The notes under the pieces were generated by a model. It made no database searches and was not told where the DNA came from. It worked only from the letters and a program-made list of their open reading frames with translations. From an uncultured Verrucomicrobiae bacterium (lineage in GTDB: Bacteria; Verrucomicrobiota; Verrucomicrobiia; Chthoniobacterales; JAATET01), in assembly GCA_963719495.1 (NCBI GenBank), contig CAVRCI010000002.1, positions 64,001 to 128,000 on the forward strand: 64,000 nucleotides of DNA, read 5' to 3'. Numbering within the stretch: the stretch's first letter is position 1; every line of letters starts with the position of its first letter. This document shows, piece by piece, positions 3,320-64,000 of this stretch. A program made the position numbers and the translations under genes.

Positions 3320-3669
3320 GTTCGTCGGAAGAGGTGACTGCACGATGGAGGACCCGATCGTCCGACAGGCCGACGATGGTCAAACCCAGCAAGCGGCTTC
3401 GTTAGAGCATTCAGTAGAAGATGCTTCTGTGGTCCAGATTGACTCCGCATTATAAATATATTGCTCGTGACAAGAGCAGGCCGGAGAGGATTCTGGATGG
3501 ATCTACTCATTCCGCGTGAGCGCCCCAAGCGTGCATGGCCGGCGAATAATCGTTGGCGTCGAATCGGGAGTGATCAATAGAAAACCAGAATCGTGCTCAA
3601 TCGTATGCCGAAGGGAATCGAGCAACTCTGAATTTTCCCTTGATCTTAACTCCAATAAATCAGGCGAAC
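3320..3669 (-). other. ORF-less cassette family C, copy 1 of 9
   Basis: 350 bp; other copies 5016-5365, 20674-21023, 24834-25183, 32468-32817, 39617-39966, 53737-54086, 56964-57314, 58047-58396; own attC variant. Confidence 0.85.
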
Positions 3670-3759
3670 GTCAAGCTCAGCCACCCTGAGCGGGCAATCA
3701 AGCCAACCCTGAGGTGAGCTGCCAATAGCGGGACCGAGCAACCCCAGCCAGCGAAGCGG

Positions 3760-4203
3760 CTAGGGGTTGGCTGCAGCGCCTTGTTCGGCTGTATTCCGTT
3801 GAAACTTCGACGAGAGGTCTGAACAATACAATAAAGCCAGAATTGCTCCTGTTATACCGGATGATAGCATGTCGAGCAGCATCTCCGGCGCAGACATGAT
3901 GTCATACGAAATCATGCCAATCCAAGGGATTGATATGGCAACAATGAATACATAGAGAGTCCGTGCATATCTGCGCAGCATCCAAAGGCGAATCCATGAA
4001 AGTATCGCTCCTATAAAAATGACGAAGGCATACGCAATGAACAGTGGTTCCGGGATTCCGTAATTATATATGGGAGCATCGTATGCTTGCATTCTGAGAT
4101 CTTCAGACAGCCAAGGATCGCCGAGCGCTCCCAGAGATATGTGGATAGTAATTAAAGCGAGTTCTGACAAAATCAAAATCCGCAAGACGGTCTTCGTGGT
4201 CAT
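3760..4203 (-). CDS. Membrane protein (about 4 TM)
   Basis: Hydrophobic segments; start MTTKTV; stop inside attC. Confidence 0.75.
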   Translation of the reverse strand: MTTKTVLRILILSELALITIHISLGALGDPWLSEDLRMQAYDAPIYNYGIPEPLFIAYAFVIFIGAILSWIRLWMLRRYARTLYVFIVAISIPWIGMISYDIMSAPEMLLDMLSSGITGAILALLYCSDLSSKFQRNTAEQGAAANP

Positions 4204-4399
4204 ATTGAGGCCGGATGAATTAAGTAGATACGAAAGGAGCCGCGTAGAATTCTTTCGTTGGCTGGTGGGTGACTTACTGAGCCGAACGTCAAGCTCAGCC
4301 ACCCTGAGCGGGGAACCAAGCCAACCCTGAGGTGAGCTGCGAGTAGCGGGTCCGCGCAACCCCCGCCGCGAAGCGGCTAGGGGTTGGCTGCAGCGCCTT

Positions 4400-4900
4400 G
4401 TTCGACGCGCATCTGTTCAAACTACGCATATCGTGACTTCCTCAAGCCAACCCCTCCGTATCTCTACCGAAGGCACTCCAATAATGACGATCAAACCTTC
4501 GAAGAGGCTTCGCGATTGGAATCACTGAAATGCGATTGGAAGATTGTAGAGAGTAAAGGCTGAACTGGAGCGGGGGGCTTGGGATCAAGCTCACAAATAT
4601 ACGCCAGGAAGATTGTAGGGGGTAGAGGCTGAATTGGAATAGAGAGGGGGCATCAAGCTCACAAATAGAAGCTTGGAACGATTGTTGGGACATCTGGTGA
4701 CTTCCGAACGATTGGTCGAAAATCAAAATATTCTATCCGTTGAGAAACTGGGTTTGTTGCCTAGGCCCCGATCCTCCGTCCTGCGCTGGTCGAAAAAAAA
4801 GAACCCGACCGCTTGAAACAAGATGTGGTGTCCCCTGACGGCGTCCGAATATGTAAGAGCGAAATATAGTCATCCGCCGGAGGCTCACAATGAGTCGAAC
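4400..4900 (-). other. ORF-less cassette family A, copy 1 of 4
   Basis: Other copies 16331-16836 (diverged), 50932-51433, 60787-61287. Confidence 0.8.
4538..4686. repeat. ~68-69 bp tandem repeat inside family A cassette
   Basis: GGAAGATTGT-like starts at 4538, 4607, 4675; ATCAAGCTCACAAATA recurs in each full unit. Confidence 0.8.
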
Positions 4901-5015
4901 GTCAAGCTCAGCCACCCCGAGCGGGGCAACGAACGTCTAGGCAAGGTGTTTGCCGGAAGGGGATCGGTCGGCCAAGGCTTGCCTCAAGCCGGCTAGGGGT
5001 TGGCTGCAGCGCCTT

Positions 5016-5365
5016 GTTCGTCGGAAGAGGTGACTGCACGATGGAGGACCCGATCGTCCGACAGGCCGACGATGGTCAAACCCAGCAAGCGGCTTCGTTA
5101 GAGCATTCAGTAGAAGAGGCTTCTGTGGTCCAGATTGACTACACATTATAAATATATTGCTCGTGACAAGAGCAGGCCGGAACGGATTCTGGATGGATCT
5201 ACTCATGCCGCGTGAGCGCCCCAAGCGTGCATGGCAGGCGAATAATCGTTGGCGTCGAATCGGGAGTGATCAATAGAAAACCAGAATCGTGCTCAATCGT
5301 ATGCCGAAGGGAATCGAACAACTCTGAACCTTCCCTTGATCTCAACCCCAATAAATCAGGCGTAC
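5016..5365 (-). other. ORF-less cassette family C, copy 2
   Basis: Near-identical to 3320-3669. Confidence 0.85.
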
Positions 5366-5684
5366 GTCAAGCTCAGCCACTCTGAGCGGGCAACCAAGCC
5401 AACCCCACCGTGAGCTGCAAGAAGCGGGACTGAGCAACCCCAGCCAGCGAAGCGGCTAGGGGTTGGCTGCAGCGCCTTGTTCGGCTGTATCTGCTACATG
5501 AATAACTTCGCAATCGAATCTGGATCTTGTCGCAAATCCTGAATCGCCACAATTGCGATTCGGCGTCCTTCGATAGAATAGAAAATCCCATAAGGAAATT
5601 CCTTGATAAGGAGCCTTCGGTAAGGGCGACGGAATGGTGAGCCAAGGTTTGGAAACCGCCGCAAAAGAAGTGATGCCTCGTCTA

Positions 5685-6898
5685 GTATCCTGTAACGCGC
5701 TATATTGCGTATTGAGTCGCGCTCATCGGAGCGGTATGTGGGTGGATGGCAAATCGATACCGCATCACTTTAACCGAGTCCGAACGTGAGTATTTGAGCG
5801 CGCTGGGCCGGACTTCCAAAACCGACGCCAGGCGATATGTGCATGCTCGAACGCTTTTACTTTGCGACGTTGGCGAGCACGCGCCGAGTGGCGTAGCATG
5901 GAAGGTGGCGGATGTCGCCAGCGCTCTGGGAATCGGTGTTCGCACCGTCGAACACATCAAGGAGCGCTTCGTGGAGGATGGGTTGGAGGCAGCGCTTGGA
6001 CGCAAGCCGAGAACCGGTCCTCCGAGGATTACCTTCGATGGAGCCTTTGACGCGAGGGTGACCGCCTTGGCGTGCTCCGATCCTCCCGATGGACGCGCCC
6101 GGTGGACCGTCCGTCTTCTCGCCGACAAAGTCGTGGAACTCAAGATTGCCCCCAGCGTTTCGACGATGACCATTCAGCGGTCTCTAAAAAAAACGAATTA
6201 CGCCCTCATCTGAGCAAATATTGGAAGATCCCTCCAGACGGCAGCGCCGCTTTCGTTGCTTGCATGGAGGACGTTCTCGAACTCTATCACGCACCCTACG
6301 ATGCGCTCTTCCCCCTCGTCTGTATGGATGAGTCGAGCAAGCAACTCGTTGGCGAAGTCCAAGCGCCCATCGCTGGCGCTCCCGGTAGGGCGCGAATCGA
6401 AGACCATGAATACGTTCGCAACGGCGTGGCCGAAATCTTCCTCGAAGTCGAGCCGCTGGGCGGACGCAGACATCTGGAAATCACCGAGCGCCGCACCCGC
6501 ATCCAATGGGCTCAGTTCATTCGCAGCATGCTCGACGAACGCTATCCCCACGCGACCAAGGTGCGCTTGGTCATGGACAACCTCAATACGCACAACATCG
6601 CTTCGCTCTACGAAGCCTTCCCTCCCCAGGAAGCTCGCCGACTGGCCCAACGCCTTGAGATCCACTACACCCCAAAACATGGCAGTTGGCTCAATGTCGC
6701 CGAGATCGAGTTCAGTGTCCTTCAGTCCCAATGCCTGAATCGTCGCATTCCTAACATTGAAACGCTGCGCTCGGAAGTCGCGGCTTGGGAGGCCGCCCGG
6801 AACGAAGCCGCCCGCACCACTTCGTGGCGCTTCACCACCGCCGACGCGCGGGTCAAATTGAGACGGTTATATCCGCAGCTTTAGTCGTTACAGGATAC
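5685..6898 (+). mobile_element. IS630 family element
   Basis: Terminal IR GTATCCTGTAACG/CGTTACAGGATAC, TA duplication at a CTAG target. Confidence 0.95.
5746..6884 (+). CDS. IS630 transposase (orfA/orfB joined by -1 frameshift)
   Basis: HTH orfA 5746-6213; DDE orfB (CMDE, VMDNLNTH, SWLNVAEIE); A8 run at 6186-6193. Confidence 0.92.
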
Positions 6899-7005
6899 TA
6901 GACTCCGCAAGAATTCTGAGCCTCGTCCCTCCTGGATATCTTCATAGCGTTCAAATGCGGATTGAATGTCAATGTCGGCTTGGAGGAGGTAAATGACCTC
7001 GGATG

Positions 7006-7227
7006 TCATCGAGCTGACAGGAGGCGCGACTTGATCTCGTCCAGTGTGGTGAACTCATCTGGGTGCTTGTGATAATGGGCGAGCCGCCTATCCAGCTCTT
7101 CGATGATCGCTGGGGAGACCGGGATCTCCTCGGGATGGGATGCGACGTTCTCCCATAGCTCTGACATCAGCGTGAGCTGGTCGAGGACTGAAAGGCTTTT
7201 CAGGTCGGGAATGCGTTCCAGAATCAT
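7006..7227 (-). CDS. Addiction module antitoxin
   Basis: LS..DQL.L..ELWE...ELDRRL...pattern upstream of ParE. Confidence 0.85.
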   Translation of the reverse strand: MILERIPDLKSLSVLDQLTLMSELWENVASHPEEIPVSPAIIEELDRRLAHYHKHPDEFTTLDEIKSRLLSAR

Positions 7228-7233
7228 GGAATG

Positions 7234-7262
7234 AATATGCGAATGGCGATCAATCCAGTCAA
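7234..7262 (-). promoter_or_regulatory. sigma70-like promoter, predicted leaderless
   Basis: TTGACT-17-CATATT-6 nt-ATG. Confidence 0.7.
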
Positions 7263-7375
7263 GGCATTGAGTTCAGGAGCCGAACGTCAAGCTCAGTCAC
7301 CCTGAACGGGCAATCAAGCAAACCTTGAGGTGAGCTGCTAATAGCGGGACCGAGCAACCCCAGCCAGCGGAGCGG

Positions 7376-7727
7376 CTAGGGGTTGGCTGCAGCGCCTTGT
7401 TCGGCGTATCTTGGTGTATTCCGCTTCGGGGACATAAAGCAATATAGTATAGCACCTGGAAAATTCAGGAATACAATCAATCCGACCCAAAGCAGTCTGT
7501 CGGTGCTCGTCAAACTCGGATTGCGCAGTGCATGGGCTAATGTAATCACCCAAAGACATATTGCGCTCAACACAATAAATGCCCCAGCGACTTGAAAATA
7601 TCCGATCTGATAGGCTAAATCATTAACATTCGTTGATTCGTGCGAGTTGAAGTAAAAAAAATATCAGCAAAACAAATCCGACATGAAGAAGGAGTAAGCC
7701 TGCAATTGTAGTTCCTATGACTTTCAC
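7376..7727 (-). pseudogene. Frameshifted copy of PLDc_N-like membrane protein
   Basis: Near-identical to 20158-20508 but +1 nt at A-run 7654-7661. Confidence 0.8.
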
Positions 7728-7890
7728 GAGATTGCGTTTCGAAGTTAATGCGTATTTCAGAAAATTCCTAGCCGAACGTCAAGCTCAGCCACCCTGAGCG
7801 GGTGATAGAGCCAACCCTGAGGTGATCTGCCGGTAGCGGGAACGAGCAACCCCAGCCAGCGAAGCGGCTAGGGGTTGGCTGCAGCGCCTT

Positions 7891-8411
7891 GTTAGACTCG
7901 TATTTGTATTCTGATGCTACCGCCCATGGTGAAAGATCGATTTCGATTCACCAGATGCTTTCGAGTGGATTCCGAAATAATACGTGAACAGAAATTGATG
8001 TCAGCGTCAAAATTGGAATGAAGCAGTCTCGCGCGCCAGTGATTGGAAGCGATTGGGTGCATTCCGATTGAATGAATTCGGATTCCATTTTTAACGGGCC
8101 GAGGCAGTGAAAATTTGGTCGATTCGTTTGGCTGTCTTTTAATCGAGTTGTCCATCCAGACATTCGACAAGTGGCTTTCTCGTGATGGGAACCTAAAGTC
8201 TCAATACCCACTCCGTAAAAGTGCAGTTCTACGCAAATGCACCGTTTTCGGGTCGGAATCGAGGTGGTCAAAAATCACCAAAAAAAATTCGGGTGCTGCG
8301 CACCAAATATGACTCGTCTTCGCCTCGTTTGGGATTCGGGTTTCTCGTTGCAGGTGACAAAAAGGTAGGGGTCGCTCGTATTCAGCCCGCCGGAGGCTCA
8401 CGGAGTCTAAC
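7891..8411 (-). other. ORF-less cassette family B
   Basis: Related cassettes 17523-18043, 21137-21732, 43919-44310, more distantly 45729-46118; shared hairpin+T-tract motif. Confidence 0.75.
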
Positions 8412-8524
8412 GTCAAGCTCAGCCACCCTGAGCGGGCAATCGAGCTAACCCCATGGTGAGCTGCCAATAGGGGGACCGAACAACCCCAGCCAGCGAAGCG
8501 GCTAGGGGTTGGCTGCAGCGCCTT

Positions 8525-8806
8525 GTTCGGATCCGCCCGTTCGTGGTCCCGTCGGATCTACAATCTGCAGCCTTGCTCGTCGCCATGCCGCTTGATAATC
8601 GACCCATACTAGCTAGTCAGACCGATGCGCTGCACTATGAAAATTGACGTCGAATGGACTGCGAAAAAATACCTTGGTTTGGGCTTCCGCACACTCAAAT
8701 TAACCTCATTGTGAACACCTTCCGAATACGCCAATTTTATACAAAGCAAATTGCGAACGATCTTTTTTGCAAATTGGACTTTCAGAAACTGGGGCATAGG
8801 TCCGAC
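8525..8806 (-). other. Cassette family D (no conserved ORF), copy 1 of 4
   Basis: Other copies 23157-23439, 46686-46968, 58510-58792. Confidence 0.75.
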
Positions 8807-8921
8807 GCCAAGCTCAGCCACCCTGAGCGGAGGACCGAACTCTTGAAAGAGATGTAAACTGCCACCCGGAAGTCAGAACAACGGCGACCAATGATCGGCT
8901 AGGGGTTGGCTGCAGCGCCTT

Positions 8922-9315
8922 GGTCGTCGTGACGGGTCGTAGACACAACGGCCCGCCGTAGCATCCGACAGGGGCTGAACCGTGGAAGTCAGGAACAACG
9001 CGACCACGTGAACAGAGGCTCGAGCCAGACTGGTCGTGGCCATATCTTCTCGTGATGGTGAAATCGTAGCCGAAGCGAATGAATCAACGAAGTCACTGAA
9101 ACGGAAGCTCGACCCGGCTCTGCGGGTGGAGCGGCGAGACGCTGAACGGCGGAGGGAGATCGGAGAGCTGGAAGAGGGCGTCTGTGACGAGGGGAGTCGG
9201 CGGATGGAAGGGGACGGGGTCATCCAGTCGAATCCGCTCGTCACAGTCGCCCGGGTGAATCACCAGCTAATGTCCCTGAACCGAACTCAGTCATTATTTA
9301 TTGTATAAGGCGACC
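8922..9315 (-). other. Cassette family E with GGT/ACC core
   Basis: Ends GGTCGTC...GGCGACC on plus strand; relatives 13478-13759, 52731-53012, 63982-end. Confidence 0.75.
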
Positions 9316-11274: not shown

Positions 11275-11940
11275 GTTAGGCCCGAGGGCGATCTGCTGCC
11301 CAGAACAATCTTGATCTCCAATGAGCCAACCCCGGAACTGATCTGTGAAGCACATATTCTCATCGGCTGACGAAGATAGGAAACCTCAATTCTTACCAAA
11401 AAAAATTCGACCTGCGGTGCTTTCTCGTTTTGGAACCAATGAAGTTTTCGCCTGTCGGTGAATTGAGCTGCGAGCGGGTCGAAAGGGCAAGTCATCCGCC
11501 GGAGGCTATCTCGTGGGAGATGGGGTGGAATCGGAGGGATCAAACTACGCTAAATGGAGCCGATCTGGTCATGAATGGCTCTGCAGGCAAGAGCTGATGG
11601 GCGGTCTATCGAGCAAAGTGCAGCGTTGTCCGATTGCGAGGTCGTCATGGTCGCTGCTCTGAGCGGGCCATGATGACCGGTCGATCTACAAGGCATGAAT
11701 CTCCAACTTCCCAGAGTCAGGTGATCGAGCATCACCCGGACTTGCTCGAACAACAGGTGTATAGATTTGTGGGCGTCTTGGGCAGGTGATGCGAGCCGAT
11801 CTGGAGTGATCCGGGGGATGAGAGGGTGAAAGGGCTGTCCCTCCGGGTCAGCTCCCGATCGGCGGTCGAGACTCCTGAGAACTTCCGCCTCCCGATGTAT
11901 ATATATCTCATCCGCCGGAGGCTCACAGGTATGGCCGAAC
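11275..11940 (-). other. ORF-less cassette family G
   Basis: No convincing ORF; homologous to 42878-43267; two GGA-hairpin motifs and one hairpin+T-tract motif. Confidence 0.7.
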
Positions 11941-12298: not shown

Positions 12299-12304
12299 GA
12301 TGTT

Positions 12305-13477: not shown

Positions 13478-13759
13478 GGTCGTCGTGACGGGTCGCAGCG
13501 GAAGTGGCAATCAATAGCGTCCGGCAGGAACACGATACGGAAGTCGGGAAGAGCGTGATTTGCTGTAGGAGGTCCGAGTCACTGAGGGCATGCACATATC
13601 TCCTCGTGATGGCGAAAGCGTGGCTGAAAAAGACAGACAAACGAGATTACCAGGAAAGCAGAGGGATGCGGAACGATGAGGAGATGATGAGAACGATACT
13701 CGGACGAATAAGATCTTAAGGTCCTAAACCGGGTGTTCAAATCAATATATTAGGCGACC
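13478..13759 (-). other. Cassette family E
   Basis: GGT/ACC cores; similar to 52731-53012. Confidence 0.75.
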
Positions 13760-14343: not shown

Positions 14344-14565
14344 AACGAAAGAGTAATCCGAATATTTTGGGCGGCAAGCTACACTTCAGAGCCGAACGTC
14401 AAGCTCAGCCACCCTGAGCGGACAAACAAGCCAACCCTTAGGTGAGCTGCCAATAGCGGGAACGAGCAACCCCAGCCAGCGAAGCGGCTAGGGGTTGGCT
14501 GCAGCGCCTTGTTCGGCTGCATTGGAAGCTCTATTAATCTTCGCAACAATCCAGACGATAAATGT

Positions 14566-15828
14566 CAGGGCCGACGCATCAAAAAAGATCGCGATGGAGG
14601 AAGTTTGGGCTGGTCCTATATTTTCCCGTGCGTAGATGGAGGAGATGCCCGAAACGCATCCCATCCAAAAAAGCCTGATCGAAGAGTTCAAACGCATAGA
14701 AGATCCGCGAGTATCGCGCACTCGCTACCATGAGTTGAGCGACATTCTAGTGATCGCGATCTCGACGCTTTTGTGCGCGGGCACGTCTTTCTACGACATG
14801 GAAGAGTTCGGTCGGGCCAAGGAAAAATGGTTCCGAACGTTTCTGAAGTTGCCCAACGGCATCCCCAGCCACGACACGTTCAATCGCGTGTTTTCGCTGA
14901 TCAATCCGGCGAGTTTTCACGAGTGCTTCATGAGGTGGACGCAGAGCGTGCGCGAACACATCGACCGGGAAATCGTCGCCGTCGACGGCAAAGCCCTCCG
15001 CGCAGCCTGCCAGGACGGCGGGAATGTGCGCTTCATCGTCAATGCTTGGGCAACCAGCAATCGACTTGTCCTGGGGCAGCTCGAAGTGCCCGACAAAACC
15101 AACGAAATCACGGCGGTTCCCACGCTGCTGCGAGCGTTGGAACTGCGTGGCTGCATCGTGAGCACCGACGCGATGGGGTGCCAGAAAGAGATCGCCCGAG
15201 AAATCATCGAGGCCGACGCCGATTACGTTCTTGCTCTCAAAGGCAATCACCAAACCGTCCATGAGGAAGTCAAAAGCTTCCTCGATGCCGAATTTGATCG
15301 CGAGCTCCAGAGCCCTCCAGTGCCCAAACCATCCACGAAGAAACCACCAAGCGCTCCCACTTTCGCATTCCTGGAAACCGTCGACAAAGGCCACGGGCGC
15401 TTGGAAATCCGGCGCTATTTCCAAAGCGTCGCCATCGACTGGTTCGCAGACATCAGCCAATGGGAAGGGCTGCAGAGCGTCGGAATGGTCGAATCCAGCC
15501 GCGAAATCAAAGGTCAAATCAGCGTGGAAAGACGCTACTTCCTGAGCAGCCTGCCCCTCGACGTCGGACTTTTCGCTCAAGCCGTCCGTGGACATTGGGG
15601 CGTGGAAAACTCCTGCCACTGGGTCTTGGACGTCATCCTGCGCGAAGATGGTTCCCGCGCCCGAACCGCTCACGCCGCCGAGAATCTCGCCACCCTGCGC
15701 CGCCTCGCCCTAAACCTGCTCTCTCGCGAAAAGTCCAAAAAACGCAGCATCAAGACCAAACAACTCGTCGCAGCCTGGGATCACGACTTCCTCCTGCACC
15801 TCCTCAATTTTTAGATGCGTCGGCCCTG
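14566..15828 (+). mobile_element. ISAs1 family element
   Basis: IR CAGGGCCGACGCATC at both ends; 10 bp target duplication CGATAAATGT. Confidence 0.95.
14636..15814 (+). CDS. ISAs1 transposase
   Basis: DPR, GIPSHDTF, AVDGK, NEITA, DAMGCQ, LKGN, HGRLE.R, HWGVEN motifs. Confidence 0.95.
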   Translation: MEEMPETHPIQKSLIEEFKRIEDPRVSRTRYHELSDILVIAISTLLCAGTSFYDMEEFGRAKEKWFRTFLKLPNGIPSHDTFNRVFSLINPASFHECFMRWTQSVREHIDREIVAVDGKALRAACQDGGNVRFIVNAWATSNRLVLGQLEVPDKTNEITAVPTLLRALELRGCIVSTDAMGCQKEIAREIIEADADYVLALKGNHQTVHEEVKSFLDAEFDRELQSPPVPKPSTKKPPSAPTFAFLETVDKGHGRLEIRRYFQSVAIDWFADISQWEGLQSVGMVESSREIKGQISVERRYFLSSLPLDVGLFAQAVRGHWGVENSCHWVLDVILREDGSRARTAHAAENLATLRRLALNLLSREKSKKRSIKTKQLVAAWDHDFLLHLLNF

Positions 15829-16330
15829 CGATAAATGTAGTGACGAGCGCTAGAAGCCCGAACCCGGAAATTGCTAGACCAAAAGAGGACGTGATGAGAA
15901 CTCCAGAAATATTCGTTGCCAGTTCCTTTGGATCCGCGACCCCTGAAGATCGCATGTGATCTCTGAACGAATACATGTTGTGAGCGAGACCTGCTGCGAA
16001 AATAGCGAATCCGCCGAGAAATGCCGTTGCAGATGAAGTGAAGGCCATAAAATACGGGTTTCTCATGATTAGAATGTTGTCGCCTGCTTAAGATTATACC
16101 GACTCGACGCGACCTCCATCGTATTGCGTGCCGGAGTCTGGATATGGAGTAAAAGAACTGGTTGGTTGCGTTACGAGTTGCTTAGGAATAGATCATCCAC
16201 CGGAGGTCGAGCCGAACGTCAAGCTCAGCCACCCTGAGCGGGCGACCAAGCCAACCCCCAGGTGAGCTGCCAGTAGCGGGACCGAGCAACCCCAGCCAGC
16301 GAAGCGGCTAGGGGTTGGCTGCAGCGCCTT

Positions 16331-16836
16331 GTTCGACGCGCATCTGTTCAAACTACGGATATCGTGACTTCCTCAAGCCGACCCCTCCGTATCTCTACCG
16401 AAGGCACTTCCACAATGAACATAGAATCTCAGGAAAGGCTCCGCAATCGAGGTTAGTAAATTGCGCCTGGAAGATTGTATGGGGGTTGAAGCGCAATTGG
16501 AAACGAGGGGCGGGAATCAAGCTCACAAATATTCGCCTGGAAGATTGTTGGTAATGGGAAGCTGAATTGGAACGGAGGGAAGGGAATCAGGCTCACCAAT
16601 ATGCGCTTGGAAGGATTCTGGGGGCTTCTGGTGACTTCCAAGTGATTGTTCGAAATCACCAAAATATTATCCACGGTGGGCAACTCTGAGCGCCGCCTAG
16701 CCATCGCGTATACCTCCAGCGCTGGTCGAAAATAGAGGGACCGACGGTCTCAAGCTGGATCTGGTCTAGTCTGATTTCGTCCGGACAACTGTAATCAAAA
16801 AATAGTCATCCGCCGGAGGCTCACAATGAGTCGAAC
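16331..16836 (-). other. ORF-less cassette family A (diverged)
   Basis: Ends match 4400-4900; internal repeat retained. Confidence 0.8.
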
Positions 16837-17522: not shown

Positions 17523-18043
17523 GTTAGACTCGTATTCGTATTGAGATGCTGCCGCCTATGGTGAAAATGATGGAGTTGGTTTCACCAGTTGCATTTGAAT
17601 GGAGTCCGAAATGATACGGCAACAGGAAGTGATGTCAGCTTCAAGATTGAAACGAAGCAGTATGGCGCATGAGTGATTGGAAGCGACAGGGGTGTTTTCC
17701 GAATGTATGAATTCCGATCCGTTCGGTAGCTGGATGCATAGGACTTGAGTCGTTTCGTTTGGTTATCGTTGGGTCCGGCAGTCTATCCAAATATTCAATA
17801 AGTGGCTTCCTCGTGAAAGGCACCTTAATTCTCAACGCAAACTCCGTGAAAAGTGACAGGTTAGCGAAAATGCAGAGTTTCAGAGGCAGAAACACGATGT
17901 TCAAAAATTGTCAAAAAAAATCGGGTGCTGCGCACCAAATATGACTCGTCTTCGCCTCGTTTGGGGTCCGGGCTCATCATTGCGGGTGGCAAACAAGTTG
18001 GAGTTACTCGGAGTCATTCCGCCGGAGGCTCATGGAGTCTAAC
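17523..18043 (-). other. ORF-less cassette family B
   Basis: Same length and blocks as 7891-8411. Confidence 0.75.
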
Positions 18044-20157: not shown

Positions 20158-20508
20158 CTAGGGGTTGGCTGCAGCGCCTTGTTCGGCGTATCTTGGTGTA
20201 TTCCGCTTCGGGGACATAAAGCAATATAATATAGCACCTGGAAAATTCAGGAATACAATCAATCCGACCCAAAACAGTCTGTCGGTGCTCGTCAAACTCG
20301 GATTGCGCAGTGCATGGGCTAATGTAATCACCCAAAGACATATTGCGCTCAACACAATAAATGCCCCAGCGACTTGAAAATATCCGATCTGATAGGCTAA
20401 ATCATTAACATTCGTTGATTCGTGCGAGTTGAAGTAAAAAAGTATCAGCAAAACAAATCCGACATGAAGAAGGAGTAAGCCTGCAATTGTAGTTCCTATG
20501 ACTTTCAC
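20158..20508 (-). CDS. Membrane protein with PLDc_N-like domain
   Basis: LW...L......L....RL.WV.LIVF....GAILY. Confidence 0.75.
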   Translation of the reverse strand: MKVIGTTIAGLLLLHVGFVLLILFYFNSHESTNVNDLAYQIGYFQVAGAFIVLSAICLWVITLAHALRNPSLTSTDRLFWVGLIVFLNFPGAILYCFMSPKRNTPRYAEQGAAANP

Positions 20509-20673
20509 GAGATTGCGTTTCGAAGTTAATGCGTATTTCAGAAAATTCCTAGCCGAACGTCAAGCTCAGCCACCCTGAGCGGAGCAACGAACGTTTAGGC
20601 GAGGTGTTTGCCGGAAGGGGATCGTTCGGCCAAGGCTTGCCGCTGGTCGGCTAGGGGTTGGCTGCAGCGCCTT

Positions 20674-21023
20674 GTTCGTCGGAAACGGTGACTGCACAAT
20701 GGAGGACCAGAGCGTCCGACAGGCTGACGATGATCAAATCCAGCAAGCGGCTTCGTTAGAGCATTCAGTCGAAGAGGCTTCTGTGGTCCAGATTGACTAC
20801 GCGTTATAAATATATTGCTCGTGACACGAAAAGGGCGGAACGGATTCTGGATTGATCTACTCTTGCCGCGTGAGCGCCCCAAGCCTGCATGGCAGGCGAA
20901 TAACCCTTGGGGTCGAATCGGGAGTGATCAATGGAAAGCCAGAATCGTGCTCAATCGTATGCCGAAGGGAATCGAGCAACTCTGAACTTTCCCTTGATCT
21001 CAACCCCAATAAATCAGGCGAAC
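20674..21023 (-). other. ORF-less cassette family C, copy 3
   Basis: Similar to 3320-3669. Confidence 0.85.
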
Positions 21024-21136: not shown

Positions 21137-21732
21137 GTTAGACTCGTATTTGTATTCTGCTGCTTCCACACTTGGAGAATCACGGATTCTGGATCACCAA
21201 CGGCAGTCAAACGGAATCCGAAATGTTACGGCAACTTGAGTTGTGAGGTTATCGAGAAATGCTGCTTACGATATCCGCGAACAATCCGGGCAATCGACGA
21301 CTCCAAGTTGGATCTGATTGACCGAATTCGGATCGAAAGTGACTGGTATCGGACGTCAACGATTGAAAGACAAAGGCTGCATTTCTGATGTATGAGTTTG
21401 GATTCGTTTTTAATCGGTAGTTGCAATGGGAAAATGATAACGATCCGTTACGCTTTCGCTTGATCGAGTTGTCCATCCAAACATTCAATAAGTGGCTTTG
21501 CGGTGAAAGGAACGAATATCCTCAATACGTGCGCCGTAAAAATTGCAGTGCTGCGCAAATGCACGGTTTTTGGGTCAGACCATAGATGGTTGAAAATCGC
21601 CAAAAAAATCGGGTGCTGCGCACCAAATATGACTCGTCTTCGCCTCGTTGTGGCTTCGGAGTTGACGTTTCGGGCAACAATCGGACAGGAGCTAATCAGA
21701 TATTCCGCGGAGGCTAATGGAGTGAGTCTAAC
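21137..21732 (-). other. ORF-less cassette family B (longer)
   Basis: Shares blocks with 7891-8411. Confidence 0.75.
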
Positions 21733-23156: not shown

Positions 23157-23439
23157 GTTCGGATCCGCATGTTCGTGGTCCCGTCGGATCTAAAATCTGC
23201 AACCTTGCTCGCCGCCATGCCGATTGATGATCGGGCCATACCAGCGAGTCAGACCGACGCGCTTTGCTACGGAAATTGACGTCGAATGGACTGCGCAAAA
23301 ATACCTTGGTTTGGGCTTCCTGCCACGCAAATCAGCCCCATTGTGGACACCTTCCGAATACACCAATTCTATACAAAGCAAATTACGAACGATCTTTTTT
23401 GCAATTCGGGCGTCCAGAAACAGGGGCATAGGTCCGAAC
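23157..23439 (-). other. Cassette family D, copy 2
   Basis: Possible 79 aa ORF 23190-23429, not intact in all copies. Confidence 0.7.
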
Positions 23440-24833: not shown

Positions 24834-25183
24834 GTTCGTCGGAAGAGGTGACTGCATAGTGGAGGACCCGATCGTCCGACAGGCCGACGATGGTCAAATC
24901 TAGCAAGCGGCTTCGTCAGAGCATTCAGTAGAAGAGGCTTCTGAGGTCCAGATTGACTCCGCATTATAAATATATTGCTCGTGACAAGAGAAGGGCGAAA
25001 CGGATCCTGAATGGTTCTACTCATTCCGCGTGAGCGCCCCAAGCGTGCATGGCAGGCGAATAATCGTTGGCGTCGAATCGGGAGTGATCAATGGACAACC
25101 AGCATCGTGCTTAACCGTATGCCGAAGGGAATCGATCAATACTGAACTTTCCCTTGATCTCAACTCCAATAAATCAGGCGAAC
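24834..25183 (-). other. ORF-less cassette family C, copy 4
   Basis: Similar to 3320-3669. Confidence 0.85.
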
Positions 25184-26482: not shown

Positions 26483-26663
26483 GCCGGAACGTAGAACATT
26501 GCCCATGCTGCGACAACAGCAATTTATGGGCTAACGTCAAGCTCAGCCACCCTGAGCGGGCAATCAAGCCAACCCTGAGGTGAGCTGCCGGTAAGGGGTT
26601 CGAGCAACCCCAGCCAGCGAAGCGGCTAGGGGTTGGCTGCAGCGCCTTGTTAGCTCTGTATCG

Positions 26664-26984
26664 CTATTGTAAATCGAGAGAAAAACGGAGTGCATTCTTT
26701 ACCGCTTCCATTTGATCCTGCGAAAGAGACCCAAGCCGTCGGCCGAATTCGTGGTGCTGGATCGCCTGCAATCCTTGAGTGTTCACGAAACTGTAGCGAT
26801 CAAGGAATCGTTGCTTCCCGATATCGACTTCGTATTTGCTCTCTCTTGAGTTTGTGGTGATAGGAGCGCAGATGGATAATGCTCGTGGGGCGTCGGGATC
26901 ACGACGTGAAACGATGAGCATCGGTCGGGGCTTCGCAGCTATCCCAAGGTCAACTAGGTAGATTTCACCCGGACTAGTCGTCAT
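26664..26984 (-). CDS. mazF: PemK/MazF family toxin
   Basis: PGEIYLVDLG...KPRP.LIVS...PITT...LG.LS..QM..V..AL. Confidence 0.88.
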   Translation of the reverse strand: MTTSPGEIYLVDLGIAAKPRPMLIVSRRDPDAPRALSICAPITTNSRESKYEVDIGKQRFLDRYSFVNTQGLQAIQHHEFGRRLGSLSQDQMEAVKNALRFSLDLQ

Positions 26985-27210: not shown

Positions 27211-27379
27211 GTCCGAATGTAGTTCTGGCGTGCTACGGAGGTCAAGCTGAATGTCATGAGCTAACGTCAAGCTCAGCCACCCCGAACGGGCAATCAAGCC
27301 AACCCTGAGGTGAGCTGCCAAAAGCGGGAACGAGCAACCCCAGCCAGCGAAGCGGCTAGGGGTTGGCTGCAGCGCCTTG

Positions 27380-40597: not shown

Positions 40598-40776
40598 GGC
40601 TGGAAGTTACTCTAGCTGGGCCTATCTGCAATCTCATATTGCCTCATGCCCTAACGTCAAGCTCAGCCACCCTGAGCGGGTGACCGAGCCAACCCCCAGG
40701 TGAACTGCCAATGGCGGGAACGAGCAACCCCAGCCAGCGAAGCGGCTAGGGGTTGGCTGCAGCGCCTTGTTAGCCC

Positions 40777-40971
40777 TCAGGATTTAATGTATGGGACATT
40801 CACGTCGTCCAACATTGGAAAATGCTTGCGGTTCAGAGTGTCTAGAATGAGATCATGCGAATCGGAAGTTGCGGCAATAATGCAGTCTGCAAGCCCGGTC
40901 CCGTGAGAGGGGCGAAACTGCCGCGAGTAGAGGCCTGCTTCTTCAGCTATCTCGACCGTCACCGGAAGAAC
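40777..40971 (-). pseudogene. vapC: 3' remnant of VapC toxin truncated by IS
   Basis: Near-identical to 3' part of 48661-49041. Confidence 0.88.
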
Positions 40972-42877: not shown

Positions 42878-43267
42878 CGCCGGAGGCCATGCCGTGGGGT
42901 GAACGATTGCCTTGGATGGTTCGAACGTCGAACAAAATAGCTGATCTGGCCATGAATGGCTCTGCAGGCATGGGCGGATGAGCGGTCGATTCGGAGCAAT
43001 TCCGTAAACGATCAATTTCATCGGGACGAGGTCTTCGTGGTCGCTGCTCTGAGCGGGCCACGATGACCGGTCGAGCTACAAAGGATGAATTGCATTCAAA
43101 TCGTGGCCACCGGAGAAGACGAGCAGATCTGTGGTGATGTGCGGGATGAGAGGGTGAATGGGCTGTCCTGGCACATCAGCCACAGATCGGCGGCCGAGCT
43201 ACCAGTGACTCTTCGCTGGCCAATGTATCAAATACATCATCCGCCGGAGGCTTCAGGAAAACCCAAC
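42878..43267 (-). other. Partial ORF-less cassette family G
   Basis: Homologous to ~11497-11940. Confidence 0.7.
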
Positions 43268-43918: not shown

Positions 43919-44310
43919 GTTAGACTCGTATTGCTTTTCTCCGTTTCTGTATACTTTGTTTGCTAAGTATAAGTGTGTGAGGTAAGCTGTCTTAGATGTG
44001 GTGATGGTGGAGGAGTTAAGTTCAGTGAGCCAGTAGCATCAGTCCTGATTGAATGAATTACACAAAATCACCTAAAAAATTCGTTTGCTGCGCACAAAAT
44101 ATGAGTTCGTCTTCGGATCACTTTCAATAACTGTTCTCGCTTCGCTCGACTTAGAATTCAAGCCACTCAGTGAATTCATCCACCGGAGGTCTGCATATCG
44201 ATACAAAATCCGCAGGCTCCGTTGCAAATGTTCGGCTTGGCGGGAGCGCTTCATGCATCTCATTACCTCATCCACCGGAGGTCTTCATGACTTTTGTATA
44301 AGAGTCTAAC
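43919..44310 (-). other. ORF-less cassette, family B-related
   Basis: GACTCGTATT end, hairpin+T-tract, two ACC-GGA-GGT motifs. Confidence 0.7.
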
Positions 44311-46685: not shown

Positions 46686-46968
46686 GTTCGGATCCGCATC
46701 TTCGTGGTCCCGTCGGATCTAAAATCTGCAGCCTTGCTCGCCGCCATGCCGAGTGATGATCGAGCCATACCAGCGAGTCAGACCGATGCGCTTCGATACG
46801 GAAATTGACGTCGAACGGACTGCGCAAAAATACCTTGGTTTGGGCTTCCGGCCAGGAAAATCAACCTTATTGTGGACACCTTCCGAATACACCCAATTTA
46901 TACAAAGCAAATTACAAACAAGCTTGTCTGCAGTTTGGGCGCCGTAGAACAGGGGCATAGGTCCGAAC
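46686..46968 (-). other. Cassette family D, copy 3
   Basis: Similar to 23157-23439. Confidence 0.7.
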
Positions 46969-50931: not shown

Positions 50932-51433
50932 GTTCGACGCGCATCTGTTCAAACTACGCATATCGTTACTTCCTCAAGCCAACCCCTCCGTATCTCTACC
51001 GAAGGCACTCCAATAATGAAGATCAAACCTTCGGAGAGGCTTCGCGATTGGAATCACTGAAATGCGATTGGAAGATTGTAGAGAGTAGAGCCTGAACTGG
51101 AGCGGGGGGCTTGGGACCAAGCTCACAAATATACGCCTGGAAGATTGTAGGGGGGTAGAGGCTGAATTGGAATAGAGAGGGGGCATTAAGCTCACAAATA
51201 GAAGCTCGGAACGATTGTTGGAACATCTGGTGACTTCCGAACGATTGGTCGAAAACCAAAATATTCTATCCGTTGAGAAACTGTGTTTGTTGCCTAGGCC
51301 CCGATTCTCCGTCCTACGCTGGTCGAAAAAATAGAACCCGACCGCTTGTAACAAGATGTGGTGTCCCCTGACGGCGTCCGAATATGTGAGAGCGAAATAT
51401 AGTCATCCGCCGGAGGCTCACAATGAGTCGAAC
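50932..51433 (-). other. ORF-less cassette family A
   Basis: Similar to 4400-4900. Confidence 0.8.
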
Positions 51434-52730: not shown

Positions 52731-53012
52731 GGTCGTCGGGACGGGTCGCAGCGGAAGTGGCAATCGATAGCGTCCGGCAGGAACAAGATAAGGAAGTTGG
52801 GAAGGGGGTGATTTGCTGCAAGAGGTCCGAGTCACTGATGGCATGCACATATCTCCTCGTGATGGCGAAAGCGTGGCAAAAAAGACAGACAAACGAGATT
52901 ACCAGCAAAGCAGAGGGACGCGGAACGATGAGGAGATGATGAGAACGATACTCGGACGAATAAGATCTGAAGGTCGTAAACCGGGCGTTCAAAACAGATA
53001 TATTAGGCGACC
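52731..53012 (-). other. Cassette family E
   Basis: GGT/ACC cores. Confidence 0.75.
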
Positions 53013-53736: not shown

Positions 53737-54086
53737 GTTCGTCGGAAACGGTGACTGCACAATGGAGGACCTGAGCGTCCGACAGGCTGACGATGATCAA
53801 ATCCAGCAAGCGGCTTCGTTAGAGCATTCAGTCGAAGAGGCCTCTGTGGTCCAGATTGACGACGCATTATAACTATATTGCTCGTGACACGAGAAGGGCG
53901 GAACGGATTCTGGATTGGTCTACTCTTGCCGCGTGAGCGCCCCAAGCGTGCATGGCAGGCGAAAAACCCTTGGCGTCGAATCGGGAGTGATCAATGGAAA
54001 GCCAGAATCGTGCTCAATCGTATGCCGAAGGGAATCGAGCAACTCTAAACTTTCCCTTGATTTTAACCCCAATAAATCAGGCGAAC
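53737..54086 (-). other. ORF-less cassette family C, copy 7
   Basis: Similar to 3320-3669. Confidence 0.85.
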
Positions 54087-56466: not shown

Positions 56467-56848
56467 GTTCGGCTCTAACCGCACAAGCTACGAAGGGTGT
56501 TGCAATCACGATGCCAACCCCTCCTTGAATTTGACCGTATGCATTTTACTATTGGCCGTTCGGATAAGGGGGAATGCCGTAAACTAGATGAAACTGAGCA
56601 GCGTGTGGAATGAGATAAGACTGGAACCGCAGTCAAAAAGTGGGACCTGAGAATGACCAAAAGATTTCGCTTTCGCTTCGCGAAAGAATGCGGATGAAGG
56701 ACTGATGGTGGAATTTCGGTGATCCGTCGCCGATGGTTCATCTTCGGAGCACTGCTGGGCAACATCATATTTTATAGCTCCGTCAAGCGGTGTTGGGAGC
56801 GATCAACAAGTTGCTCAGACGATATCATCCGCCGGAGGCAAGCCGAAC
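56467..56848 (-). other. ORF-less cassette family F
   Basis: Homologous to 39121-39500. Confidence 0.75.
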
Positions 56849-56963
56849 GTCAAGCTCAGCCACCCTGAGCGGGGCGACGAAAGTCTAGGAAAGGTGTTTG
56901 CGGGAAGGGGATCGGTCGGCCAAGGCTTGCCTCGGGCCGGCTAGGGGTTGGCTGCAGCGCCTT

Positions 56964-57314
56964 GTTCGTCGGAAGAGGTGACTGCACAATGGAGGACTTG
57001 ATCGTCCGACAGGCCGACGATGGGTCAAACCCAGCAAGCGGCTTCGTTAGAGCATTCAGTAGAAGAGGCTTCTGTGGTCCAGATTGACTACGCATTATAA
57101 ATATATTGCTCGTGACAAGAGCAGGCCGGAACGGATTCTGGATGGATCTACTCATGCCGCGTGAGCGCCCCAAGCGTGCATGGCAGGCGAATAATCGTTG
57201 GCGTCGAATCGGGAGTGATCAATAAAAAACCAGAATCGTGCTCAATCGTATGACGAAGGGAACCGAACAACTCTGAACCTTCCCTTGATCTCAACCCCAA
57301 TAAATCAGGCGAAC
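56964..57314 (-). other. ORF-less cassette family C, copy 8
   Basis: Similar to 3320-3669, +1 nt. Confidence 0.85.
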
Positions 57315-58046: not shown

Positions 58047-58396
58047 GTTCGTCGGAAGAGGTGACTGCACGATGGAGGACCCGATCGTCCGACAGGCCGA
58101 CGATGGTCAAACCCAGCAAGCGGCTTCGTTAGAGCATTCAGTAGAAGAGGCTTCTGTGGTCCAGATTGACTACGCATTATAAATATATTGCTCGTGACAA
58201 GAGCAGGCCGGAACGGATTCTGGATGGATCTACTCATGCCGCGTGAGCGCCCCAAGCGTGCATGGCAGGCGAATAATTCTTGGGGTCGAATCGGGAGTGA
58301 TCAATGAAAAACCAGAATCGTGCTCAATCGTATGCCGAAGGGAATCGAGCAACTCTGAACTTTCCCTTGATCTTAACTCCAATAAATCAGGCGAAC
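58047..58396 (-). other. ORF-less cassette family C, copy 9
   Basis: Similar to 3320-3669. Confidence 0.85.
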
Positions 58397-58509: not shown

Positions 58510-58792
58510 GTTCGGATCCGCCCGTTCGTGGTCCCGTCGGATCTACAATTTGCAGCCTTGCTCGTCGCCATGCCGATTGATAATCGAGCCATACCAGCGA
58601 GTCAGACCGATGCGCTTCGCTACGAAAATTGACGTCGAATGGAATGCGCAAAAATACCTTGGTTTTGGCTTTCAGATACACAAATTCACCTCATTGTGGA
58701 CCCCTTCCGAATACGCCAATTTTATACAAAGCAAATTACGAACGAGCTTGCTTGCAGTTTGGGCTTCGAAGACCAGGGGCATAGGTCCGAAC
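58510..58792 (-). other. Cassette family D, copy 4
   Basis: Similar to 8525-8806. Confidence 0.7.
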
Positions 58793-60786: not shown

Positions 60787-61287
60787 GTTCGACGCGCATC
60801 TGTTCAATCTACGCATATCGTGACTTCCTCAAGCCAACCCCTCCGTATCTCTACCGAAGGCACTCCAATAATGAAGATCAAACCTTCGAAGAGGCTTCGT
60901 GATTGGAATCACTGAAATGCGATTGGAAGATTGTAGAGAGTAAAGGCTGAACTGGAGCGGGAGGCTTGGGATCAAGCTCACAAATATACGTCTGGAAGTT
61001 TGTAGGGGGTAGAGGCTTAATTGGAATAGAGAGGGGGCATCAAGCTCACAAATAGAAGCTTAAAACGATTGTTGGGACATCTGGTGACTTCCGAACGATT
61101 GGTCGAAAATCAAAATATTCTATCCGTTGAGAAACTGTGTTTGTTGCCTAGGCCCCGATCCTCCGTCCTACGCTAGTCAAAAAAATAGAACCCGACCGCT
61201 TGAAACAAGATGTGGTGTTCCCTGACGGCGTCCGAATATGTAAGAGCGAAATATAGTCATCCGCCGGAGGCTCACAATGAGTCGAAC
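60787..61287 (-). other. ORF-less cassette family A
   Basis: Similar to 4400-4900. Confidence 0.8.
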
Positions 61288-61820: not shown

Positions 61821-61967
61821 GAATATTTGGCCGAACGTCAAGCTCAGCCACCCTGAGCGGGTGAACGAGCCAACCCTGAGGTGAGCTGCCAATAGAAGGT
61901 CCGAGCAACCCCAGCCAGCGAAGCGGCTAGGGGTTGGCTGCAGCGCCTTGTTCGGCTGTATCGCATT

Positions 61968-62360
61968 TTAGTTTCGATGGCTCAGTCCGGGGACTCTAAA
62001 TTCTTGAAGGCACTTCTCGCAGCGGTGGACTCTCCAGCTTGCCGACTCAATCTCGATATATCGGGGAAGCTCGGAAAGCCGGTGCATGCAAACAGGGCAG
62101 TTGGGAACAGCGAGAACTGCTCGATATATGAGATACCCGACAAGCCAAACAGATAATCCGATAGCCGCGACCACCAGACAAGCGTTCGCCCAGTGATTGT
62201 CCTGAAGATGGTTACTAAAAGTCGGTCCTGCCATGATTATCACTATGACAATCGCAAAAATAGCAAGTGATTTAGCAAATGTCTCTCGATGGAATCCGGA
62301 GACTTCACGTGGTAACTCTTTATCTTCAAGCATTGTGGAAGTTGATGGGCTTGGGTTCAT
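61968..62360 (-). CDS. Two-TM protein with C-terminal Zn ribbon
   Basis: CPVC...CEKC after two hydrophobic helices. Confidence 0.7.
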   Translation of the reverse strand: MNPSPSTSTMLEDKELPREVSGFHRETFAKSLAIFAIVIVIIMAGPTFSNHLQDNHWANACLVVAAIGLSVWLVGYLIYRAVLAVPNCPVCMHRLSELPRYIEIESASWRVHRCEKCLQEFRVPGLSHRN

Positions 62361-62628
62361 GTCAGTCTCGAAAAGACAGAGTTGGTAATCGAACAACGAA
62401 CTCGACTGGAGACAAATTGGACGATCCGAAGAGGTCCTGGGTCATGCAGCAAGTTGCTCAGAAATATCATCCACCGGAGGTCGAGCCGAACGTCAAGCTC
62501 AGCCACCCTGAGCGGGCAACCAAGCCAACCCAACGGTGAACTGCCGGAAGCGGGAACGAGCAACCCCAGCCAGCGAAGCGGCTAGGGGTTGGCTGCAGCG
62601 CCTTGTTAGCCCTGTATTGAATTTGTTC

Positions 62629-62991
62629 TCATATCGGAAGGATTCGAACACGAGTCCGATTCGGAAGAATTGTAACAATGGCACCTTTTTCGAGTTGTTC
62701 GGAAAATGAATCTATTACTGTTAGAACGGTTGATCCGAGCGCTTCGGGCGTGATATCGTCAACGCGAGCTTGAATGACGCTGGGCTTGTGGGCGTGGGAA
62801 TGAGCAAGCAGCGTTCCAAAGTCGAGATCGTGCGTGAAAATCACGAGGTTCTCAGCTCGAGCGTGTTCGAAAATTACATGGTCCTTCGCATTCCGTGGTC
62901 CTAGAGACGACCAATGGAATGAATGAATCTTGGTTTGGTCGAAGAATGGAATCCAGTCTTCGGGTAGGCACACATCGACGAGAATCGTCAT
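62629..62991 (-). CDS. DUF5615 PIN-like toxin (paralogue of 25899-26261)
   Basis: Few substitutions from first copy. Confidence 0.88.
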   Translation of the reverse strand: MTILVDVCLPEDWIPFFDQTKIHSFHWSSLGPRNAKDHVIFEHARAENLVIFTHDLDFGTLLAHSHAHKPSVIQARVDDITPEALGSTVLTVIDSFSEQLEKGAIVTILPNRTRVRILPI

Positions 62992-63212
62992 GCAGCCTGT
63001 AGTTCTGCATCATAGGCCTCCGCGAGCCAGGTAGCGTATGAGAGAGCAGCGGAAATATCCTCAGCTTCGAGAAAAGGATACATACCAAGAACCTTGGCTC
63101 GGTCGTGACCAGCGGCAATTAACCCTGTAATCGTGCCGACAGTTATCCGCATGTTCCGAATACAGGGCTTCCCGCCCATTAACGCTGGATCTCTTGTGAT
63201 ACGCTCGTGCAT
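62988..63212 (-). CDS. DUF433 antitoxin (paralogue of 26258-26482)
   Basis: Same translation. Confidence 0.9.
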   Translation of the reverse strand: MHERITRDPALMGGKPCIRNMRITVGTITGLIAAGHDRAKVLGMYPFLEAEDISAALSYATWLAEAYDAELQAA

Positions 63213-63383
63213 GCCGAAACGTAGAACATTGCCGACGGCGCGACAACAGCAATTTATGGGCTAACGTCAAGCTCAGCCACCCCGAACGGGCGACCGGATA
63301 CTACTGGTGATCAACTGCCGATTGCGCTTCCGCAACCCCAGGAGCGAAGCGGATAGGGGTTGGCTGCAGCGCCTTGTTAGGTC

Positions 63384-63851
63384 TCAGGAATTATTGTTGT
63401 TTCGAGCAGACCGGCGCCAAGTAATAACTGCTAGCCAGAAACAAAATATCTGAGTGAGCTCAGGAATCTCAGGAATGAAGTCAATTGTGCATCTTCTAGT
63501 GAAAGGGTGAGTTGTAGTGATTACTCCAACCGGTTGTGATCCTGTAGATATGTCATAGCAACGAGTAAAAGGCGATTGCGCTTTCGAAAGAAGAGAGCCT
63601 TCCGGAGTGTCAATTTGAAAGGATCGAAACATGGCGTTCGGCTTGTGTGCTTCTGAAATCGTGCTGGTATCAGAGAGTAACGACCAGCGCCCGCTCATCC
63701 ATCCGTGTTTTTGTATCGTGTAACAAGTTCTATTGTATTGAATGGAGCCCTGTTCAGTAAAAAAGTCGAATTCAGCAATCGCTTGACCGGTAGGTGATCC
63801 CTCAATATGAAAGTTCCAAGAACAAAGAGATTCTGGCAGGCAAGTGAGCAT
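63384..63851 (-). CDS. Hypothetical protein, LURP-one/scramblase-like beta fold
   Basis: Repeating beta-strand pattern and C-terminal hydrophobic helix. Confidence 0.6.
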   Translation of the reverse strand: MLTCLPESLCSWNFHIEGSPTGQAIAEFDFFTEQGSIQYNRTCYTIQKHGWMSGRWSLLSDTSTISEAHKPNAMFRSFQIDTPEGSLLSKAQSPFTRCYDISTGSQPVGVITTTHPFTRRCTIDFIPEIPELTQIFCFWLAVITWRRSARNNNNS

Positions 63852-64000
63852 TATAATAATGACCTAACGCCAAGCTCAGCCACCCCGAACGGGGGACCAA
63901 ATTCTGAGCTTGATGTGATGGAATGGACGGAAGTCAGAACAAGAGCGCCGGGTGACGGCTAGGGGTTGGCTGTAGCGCTCTGGTCGTCGGGACGGCTCGT

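Follow-up and report, generated by a model that had tools for sequence, protein, structure and literature searches.

What kind of element is a cassette that carries no gene and recurs many times within a single integron array? The question is raised by a 64,000-nucleotide stretch of DNA (the window) from an uncultured Verrucomicrobiae bacterium (GenBank assembly GCA_963719495.1, contig CAVRCI010000002.1, positions 64,001 to 128,000). In the labels used here it is G000:C2:64001-128000, where G000 is the genome of the window and G001-G005 are five congeners. A preliminary description of this DNA had assigned about one third of its cassettes to seven recurrent families, A to G, that lack open reading frames (ORFs). 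We find that these elements are mobile, non-coding, multi-copy, mosaic, species-specific and randomly placed. The account that we favour, which we hold with evenly balanced confidence, is that the integrase has amplified a mixed class of gene-less cassettes, part of which carries cis-acting modules.

The window occupies the middle of a cassette array on the minus strand that spans roughly 27-175 kb of contig C2 and contains about 200 homogeneous attC sites. Smaller attC arrays are present on C2 (plus strand) and on contig C7. A tyrosine recombinase, IntI, is encoded at C2:176.7 kb, divergent from the array, the attI junction can be read next to the array, and TIGR02249 is found above its cut-off in four of the five congeners. 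An integrase beside attI and an array identifies a sedentary chromosomal integron, and the G000 array is a superintegron of about 210 cassettes. When 208 G000 cassettes were parsed from start to end, 153 proved to carry full 7/7 complementary R′/R″ pairs within their own boundaries. R″ pairs on average at 6.7 of 7 positions with the start of its own cassette, compared with 5.4 for the start of the next, and R and L boxes are seen in the folded attC sites. The non-coding units are real mobile cassettes, because they have their own complementary R′/R″ ends and because the neighbours of family members differ from copy to copy.

Non-coding families hold 29 of the 89 cassettes that start in positions 3320-64000 (33%), in agreement with the earlier estimate, and 74 of 208 cassettes genome-wide in G000. 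The earlier counts for C (9), A (4) and F (2) are reproduced. Family B has four window copies by hidden Markov model (HMM) rather than five, D has three plus one related family rather than four, and the four E cassettes divide into two families, E1 and E2, with two copies each and about 150 nt in common at the 3′ end. Two further related singletons, at 11282 and 40776 (the latter split by an insertion), belong to the same class. As previously stated, no coding cassette is present more than twice in the window, although one coding family reaches three copies genome-wide. Family G does not survive as ORF-less. Which pair was meant by that name is uncertain, and the probable one, at 7406/20188, is a PLDc_N membrane-protein gene whose copies are about 99% identical, with a 1-nt insertion in a T run that shifts the frame of one. 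Genome-wide, the parsed copies number 30 for C plus one at attI (31 in all), 12 for B and 7 for A; all 31 C copies lie inside arrays, the attI copy standing first. The features of the window are as follows, where M1 denotes a leader motif described below.

3327-3668, minus: 342-bp body of a family C cassette (nine copies in the window and 31 genome-wide)
3198-3326, minus: 129-bp attC of the private C type (pfold predicted at about 0.8)
3567-3653, minus: 5′ hairpin of C, imperfect, 31 bp on the sense strand (pairing preserved by G-U in common variants)
3360-3438, minus: conserved non-coding block of C (79 nt at 80% in the diverged homolog of G001)
5023-5364, minus: family C copy
20681-21022, minus: family C copy
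24841-25182, minus: family C copy
32475-32816, minus: family C copy
39624-39965, minus: family C copy
53744-54085, minus: family C copy
56971-57313, minus: family C copy
58054-58395, minus: family C copy
4407-4899, minus: family A cassette (about 493 bp; M1 at head, internal duplication)
4870-4884, minus: M1 leader motif RCCTCCGGYGGATGA, then an AT-rich -10-like box
16338-16835, minus: family A copy
50939-51432, minus: family A copy
60794-61286, minus: family A copy
8532-8805, minus: family B cassette (275 bp)
23164-23438, minus: family B copy
46693-46967, minus: family B copy
58517-58791, minus: family B copy
7898-8410, minus: family D cassette (M1 at head; small conserved triloop hairpin before a T run)
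17530-18042, minus: family D copy
21144-21731, minus: family D copy
43926-44309, minus: cassette of a 385-bp D-related family (M1 twice; G001 has 11 copies)
8929-9314, minus: family E1 cassette (386 bp; starts GGT with crossover after the first G, R″ ACC, not GTT/AAC)
63989-64000, minus: second E1 copy, 3′ end (runs on past the window edge)
13485-13758, minus: family E2 cassette (274 bp; GGT/ACC crossover; C-type attC interior)
52738-53011, minus: family E2 copy
39128-39499, minus: family F cassette (M1 at head; leader common with unrelated coding cassettes)
56474-56847, minus: family F copy
11282-11939, minus: non-coding cassette from another family, with two M1 motifs and a hairpin near 11637-11678
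40776-43266, minus: cassette related to that at 11282, interrupted by a GC-rich, apparently IS-like insertion (about 2 kb)
20188-20557, minus: PLDc_N protein cassette, not ORF-less (second copy 7406-7776 frameshifted in a T run)

Coding potential was assessed with a codon test on 32 families pooled from the six genomes, including 12 coding families. For large families, assignment to the non-coding class rests on this test; for small families, it rests on homology by HMM or on low cover by ORFs. The 12 coding families exhibit strong phase bias and best-frame omega (dN/dS) values of 0.20-0.59, whereas the non-coding families exhibit flat codon phase and lowest-frame omega values of 0.58-0.85, with the lowest values in small families. 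Family C alleles are distributed 45/55/56 over the three codon phases, and omega ranges from 0.74 to 1.18 over six frames. A 50-codon frame of C is intact in 27 of 29 distinct copies, yet its omega is 1.8. Many copies contain chance ORFs of 50-126 codons, which show no coding selection, and the 150-bp ORF limit of Boucher 2006 does not hold for these families.

Protein searches give the same picture. No match to Pfam was found for the ORFs of families A-F, and no small hydrophobic ORF with low omega, a mark of type I toxin-antitoxin systems, is conserved in the large families. The 95-aa ORF of C retrieves a single match at 91% identity, probably from another copy, and the ORF of B retrieves a single 81-aa protein (60% identical) plus two marginal matches. 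When 536 other cassettes and the genome beyond the arrays were searched in six frames, only a DNA-level relative of B was recovered. The families thus have neither the protein homologs nor the synonymous-site pattern of genes, as in the Boucher 2006 definition of non-coding cassettes, and their first portrayal as recurrent and non-coding stands.

The same attC arrays are found in all five congeners (65-419 matches each), and other genomes of the host's taxonomic family yield at most 36 attC matches, in fragmented assemblies. Non-coding cassettes account for 37/133, 83/180, 19/57, 84/210 and 83/167 of those in the congener stretches examined (28-50%). Each species is dominated by its own non-coding family and has stray copies of the families of others: C has 30 copies in G000 and 1 in G004, a 291-bp family has 46 in G004 and 2 in G000, and a 340-bp family has 54 in G005 and 1 in G000. 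The families are modular and form superfamilies with common blocks of 50-200 nt. For example, the family A 3′ module is shared with the dominant family of G005, and family B homologs in congeners have conserved ends and a diverged interior. In G001 (L108-L112), the 385-bp D-related family is followed by a B-like family five times (1.3 expected), which suggests that the pair moves as a two-cassette unit. In the window, C is followed by F twice (39128-39965 and 56474-57313).

Family C is present in two of the five congeners, as a 95% identical copy in G004 and as a diverged 380-bp homolog in G001 with a 79-nt block at 80% identity, and in none of 55 other genomes searched. Fourteen array fragments from other genera contain no family match, the C block has no homolog in metagenomes and viral contigs, and phages have no C homolog. 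One weak match was obtained from 26 attC-bearing metagenome loci and 80 integrase loci, plasmids gave one chance-level match to 7898-9314, and one hairpin arm has 27 viral matches, in none of which the other arm is present. The families are therefore paralogous, with homologs limited to close relatives, which is the other part of the Boucher 2006 definition.

The distribution and divergence of the copies bear on how they arose. Spacing of C is random (gap coefficient of variation 0.91, p=0.62), non-coding cassettes adjoin one another no less often than expected, and promoterless neighbours are not favoured (34/185 versus 46/286, p=0.62). Siblings that are at least 98% identical are more frequent among non-coding than among other cassettes of G000 (27/73 versus 21/127, p=0.002), and near-identical siblings are in excess in three of the six genomes (G000, G004 and G005). 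Almost all other duplicates are recent (21/23), whereas C copies span 87-100% identity. These C copies are mosaic (p=0.0005), a recombination signal is present in 8 of 10 family sets, and a non-coding cassette stands first at attI in two of five integrons.

Family C also carries a private attC interior. Its median predicted pfold is 0.81 (n=30), compared with 0.023 for the rest (n=133), a contrast whose significance is overstated because C copies share one attC by descent; the values for E1 and E2 are 0.30 and 0.63. Both pfold and cassette length have been tied to excision rate (PMC5371416). If the amplification account is correct, the integrase would repeatedly excise and re-insert gene-less cassettes, leading to high copy number, and recombination between copies would mix them. 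The bloom of C (and of E) would then arise from a private attC that folds into a recombinogenic hairpin more readily than the common attC of the array. The M1-headed families (A, D and F; 12 of the 29 window copies with their relatives) would persist as cis promoter or leader modules, and might change transcription of the next cassettes. The selfish amplification proposed in the preliminary description thus gains indirect support from the species-specific dominant families, attC pfold and near-identical siblings.

Crossover triplets were compared as well. The GTT/AAC triplet is kept in 29/30 C copies and 10/12 B copies, and also in A, D and F. E1 and E2, in 9/9 copies, start with GGT (crossover after the first G) and have an R″ that ends in ACC, and so depart from the conserved GTT/AAC criterion. 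Over the six genomes, self-complementary non-GTT cores (GAT/ATC or GGT/ACC, each with the crossover after the G) occur in 62/380 non-coding, 0/423 coding and 0/152 other cassettes. An independent set of 177 further G004 cassettes adds 13 non-GTT cores, all in cassettes of 319-322 bp that belong to one 320-bp superfamily. IntI1 is reported to tolerate second-position triplet changes, and a T to A change raised attC x attI recombination (PMC2811028). Among the portions of the literature available to our search, no report was found of natural non-GTT triplets confined to non-coding cassettes.

The leader motif is M1 (RCCTCCGGYGGATGA), which lies in arrays on the sense strand at 28 of 29 G000 sites, occurs in all five congeners and appears only once among 11 other members of the host's family. 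It heads 18/39 non-coding and 21/314 coding families, and recurs internally in six non-coding families and in no coding family. Motif positions 1 and 9 co-vary (G-C 55, A-T 13, other 3). Coding cassettes with M1 start late, 15% of them within 25 nt compared with 68% without it, and an extended 30-nt version is common to F and several coding cassettes whose proteins are dissimilar beyond short overlaps. The hexamer in the TGn register after M1 is nAnnnT at 16/53 sites, against 6.4 in shuffled sequences. This pattern suggests that M1 is a promoter-like leader with an extended -10-like box.

Several results weigh against the amplification account. A purely selfish cassette does not explain the internal conserved modules. 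Beyond the shared descent of the C attC sites noted above, predicted attC pfold is no better than the rest in B (0.008) and A (0.016), is equal to background in the dominant families of G002, G004 and G005, and is far worse than background in the dominant G001 family (0.00015). The excess of recent duplicates is not significant in G001, G002 and G003. The non-GTT triplets represent two origins only, and family C itself has a normal triplet. For the cis-acting part, C, B and E are without M1, a full TAnnnT follows M1 at only 5/53 sites, the M1 sites are related to one another, and no excess of host -35/-10 elements was found after M1.

An alternative that we regard as unlikely is that every family, C among them, has been selected by the host as a promoter or polar silencer cassette for tuning expression of the distal array, with copy number mirroring benefit. 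In Vibrio, promoter activity was found for most of the 29 gene-less cassettes assayed, where in-silico prediction was unsuccessful (PMC11014356); untranslated stretches can be polar on downstream cassettes (PMC11511950); and long-lived multi-copy retention would suit cis action. We assessed this idea with a host promoter model built from 32 self-promoted toxin-antitoxin (TA) cassette leaders of the genus, which consists of a TTG-type -35, a spacer of 16-18 nt, TAnnnT and a start codon about 6 nt later. All nine family A copies score at least 9, mostly across M1, as this alternative would predict. Against it, C falls below the coding controls (medians 4.9 and 4.7 versus 7.3 and 7.2, n=228), and B, D and E1 score no higher than them; apart from A and a few others, no family exceeds the controls. 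The non-coding families are also GC-richer than coding cassettes (0.50 versus 0.455) rather than AT-rich, they are not evenly spaced or tied to promoterless neighbours, and intrinsic terminators of -7 kcal/mol or stronger are absent from 38 of 39 families sampled. No hybrid promoter of an attC -35 with a cassette start was found, and M1 coding cassettes show no excess of leaderless sigma70 promoters.

Many TA cassettes of the window (DUF433/DUF5615, PIN, ParE-like, RelB/PemK) have their own sigma70 promoter in the first 50 nt, for example at 62612-63264, 26656-27264 and 2690-3203. Their mRNAs are apparently leaderless, as judged from a start codon about 6 nt past the -10 box. Promoterless coding cassettes of the six arrays start 9-25 nt past the crossover, with a Shine-Dalgarno word in 2/243. 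A verrucomicrobial LexA box has no exact site in the genome, and the sites with one mismatch correspond to the C/attC junction.

It is also conceivable, but improbable in our view, that several families are trans-acting small structured RNAs, or single-stranded DNA hairpins bound by proteins such as IntI and serving as decoys. Within the window, C nucleotides 16-102 are predicted to fold into a 31-bp sense hairpin, with folding z scores of -2.7 to -3.3 in four of seven sense copies and weak scores in three. This hairpin is 97.7% paired, with consistent one-sided changes and one double change. Common C alleles keep pairing 6 to 2, compared with about 35% in other windows, and the four commonest variants pair on the sense strand and are broken on the antisense strand. 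However, this was one of many windows scanned, its covariation does not exceed that of shuffles (122/500), and the G001 homolog has a nonsignificant z of -1.0. In neither genome does the C 3′ block exceed shuffles in folding, z for whole cassettes lies close to 0 in each of the 11 families folded, and Rfam, at both gathering and E-value thresholds, yields no match.

Better covariation is found in congeners. The 320-bp superfamily, which is present in G001-G005 and absent from G000, has 19-bp inverted arms with four double-changed Watson-Crick pairs and a covariation score reached in 0/500 shuffles. These arms (L120:16034-16141 and relatives) have a 7-6-6 geometry that is loosely attC-like, and their outer boxes resemble an attC core whose triplet is GAT/ATC, though no extrahelical base is present; GAT/ATC is also the triplet of most cassette ends in this superfamily. 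Template switching can also make inverted arms co-vary, and so offers another source for this signal. In the window, the hairpin of cassettes 11282 and 40776 carries double substitutions across families. An integron-borne small RNA, sRNA-Xcc1, is known (10.1101/2025.06.18.660453), but a trans-acting RNA would not need 31 copies. No common RNA architecture emerges across families, and the class is best read as mixed rather than one non-coding RNA family. Of the functional non-coding roles suggested in the preliminary description, that of large structured RNAs gains no support, with only the C 5′ hairpin being suggestive; it is short modules that appear to be under constraint, as judged from sequence. 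Amplification, promoter or silencer function and RNA or decoy function are not fully exclusive.

The idea that the families are decayed coding cassettes drifting neutrally is very improbable and already largely refuted, since the ATG at the usual cassette position in B and E1, the frames of 62-101 codons in some copies, the frameshifted gene of the probable G pair and the derivation of some Vibrio gene-less cassettes from genes (PMC11014356) are outweighed by flat codon phase, frame-breaking indels, the lack of Pfam matches and of deep homologs for the C and B ORFs, and a six-frame search that finds only the B relative.

A wider form of the amplification account can be offered as speculation, to which we give only a small chance of being correct. 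Large integrons may host non-autonomous parasites, namely gene-less cassettes whose attC sites have become tuned for recombination through better folding and non-GTT crossovers, which have internal attC-like hairpins and which bloom species by species. These would be the source of the leader on unrelated coding cassettes, and might also serve as blanks or regulators for new cassettes.

Promoter-carrying gene-less cassettes have reportedly been described from Treponema (Tansirichaiya, 2019; PMC6557892). In Vibrio, Boucher 2006 reported 6-49% non-coding cassettes and one family of 45 copies, and proposed selfish, promoter and RNA options for paralogous non-coding cassettes (PMC1382264), and Blanco 2024 measured promoter activity for cassettes without genes (PMC11014356). 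The preliminary suggestion of an undescribed layer of integron biology is therefore not supported: the class is known, and the new details are these particular families, the leader in common and the restriction of non-GTT triplets to cassettes of the non-coding kind. As described for Vibrio (PMC1382264), the array share is large (6-49% there, 28-50% here), families are multi-copy (45 copies there, up to 54 here), genus-restricted and without a codon pattern, gene conversion is suspected, and the choice between selfish, promoter and RNA roles was left open. The present host belongs to another phylum, Verrucomicrobiota, which is also the commonest phylum in two of the three top clusters for a housekeeping protein, in itself weak evidence. 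Its family sequences are separate, a distinction made without direct comparison to Vibrio cassettes. Its families are built of modules, whereas those reported for Vibrio are alike from end to end (PMC1382264), and the accessible part of that account yielded no counterpart of the non-GTT triplets or shared leader.

Resemblances to other systems are likewise partial. The promoter cassettes of Vibrionaceae (PMC11014356) and Treponema also lack an ORF, have regulatory potential on the sense strand and are scattered in a sedentary array; here the non-coding cassettes are GC-richer than coding ones, and a promoter-like element is predicted only in M1-headed families. The altered-triplet attC sites of Frumerie 2010 (PMC2811028) likewise have GAT or GGT with a complementary partner and are recombinogenic with IntI1, but those are laboratory-made, whereas the triplets here are natural, found only in non-coding cassettes and known from their letters. 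sRNA-Xcc1 and a recurring ‘empty’ cassette of Xanthomonas (10.1101/2025.06.18.660453) similarly represent non-coding content repeated within arrays; in our case there is no Rfam match. A literature search on Verrucomicrobia integron arrays returned nothing on these families. This genus provides six arrays with independent blooms. It also offers three handles (natural non-GTT crossovers, an easily folded private attC in the dominant family and a leader common to coding cassettes) by which selfish amplification and regulation can be told apart experimentally, and which may bear on how cassettes are made.

Other aspects of the array were noted. The integrase frame is open over 549 codons (L003:630-2130), which represents a long N-terminal extension, and the congener frames have 561-565; an integrase search of genome contigs gave no close named relative. 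By Pfam, the cargo of the window includes many TA pairs, GNAT acetyltransferases and proteins of unknown type, and a single large cassette at 352-1801 encodes one 479-aa PIN_8 domain protein. Four cassettes (5486-7284, 14518-16216, 35752-37755 and 40776-43266) contain GC-rich insertions of 1-2 kb with opposite-strand ORFs, which are probably insertion sequences. Inverted cassette blocks lie within or beside main arrays at G000 C2:49.7-55.4 kb and G001 C3:315-334 kb. Finally, ATAC(A/G) occurs within the last 10 nt of 180/436 unrelated cassette families and CAT after the R′ box of 149/436, and both end motifs are possible footprints of cassette genesis.

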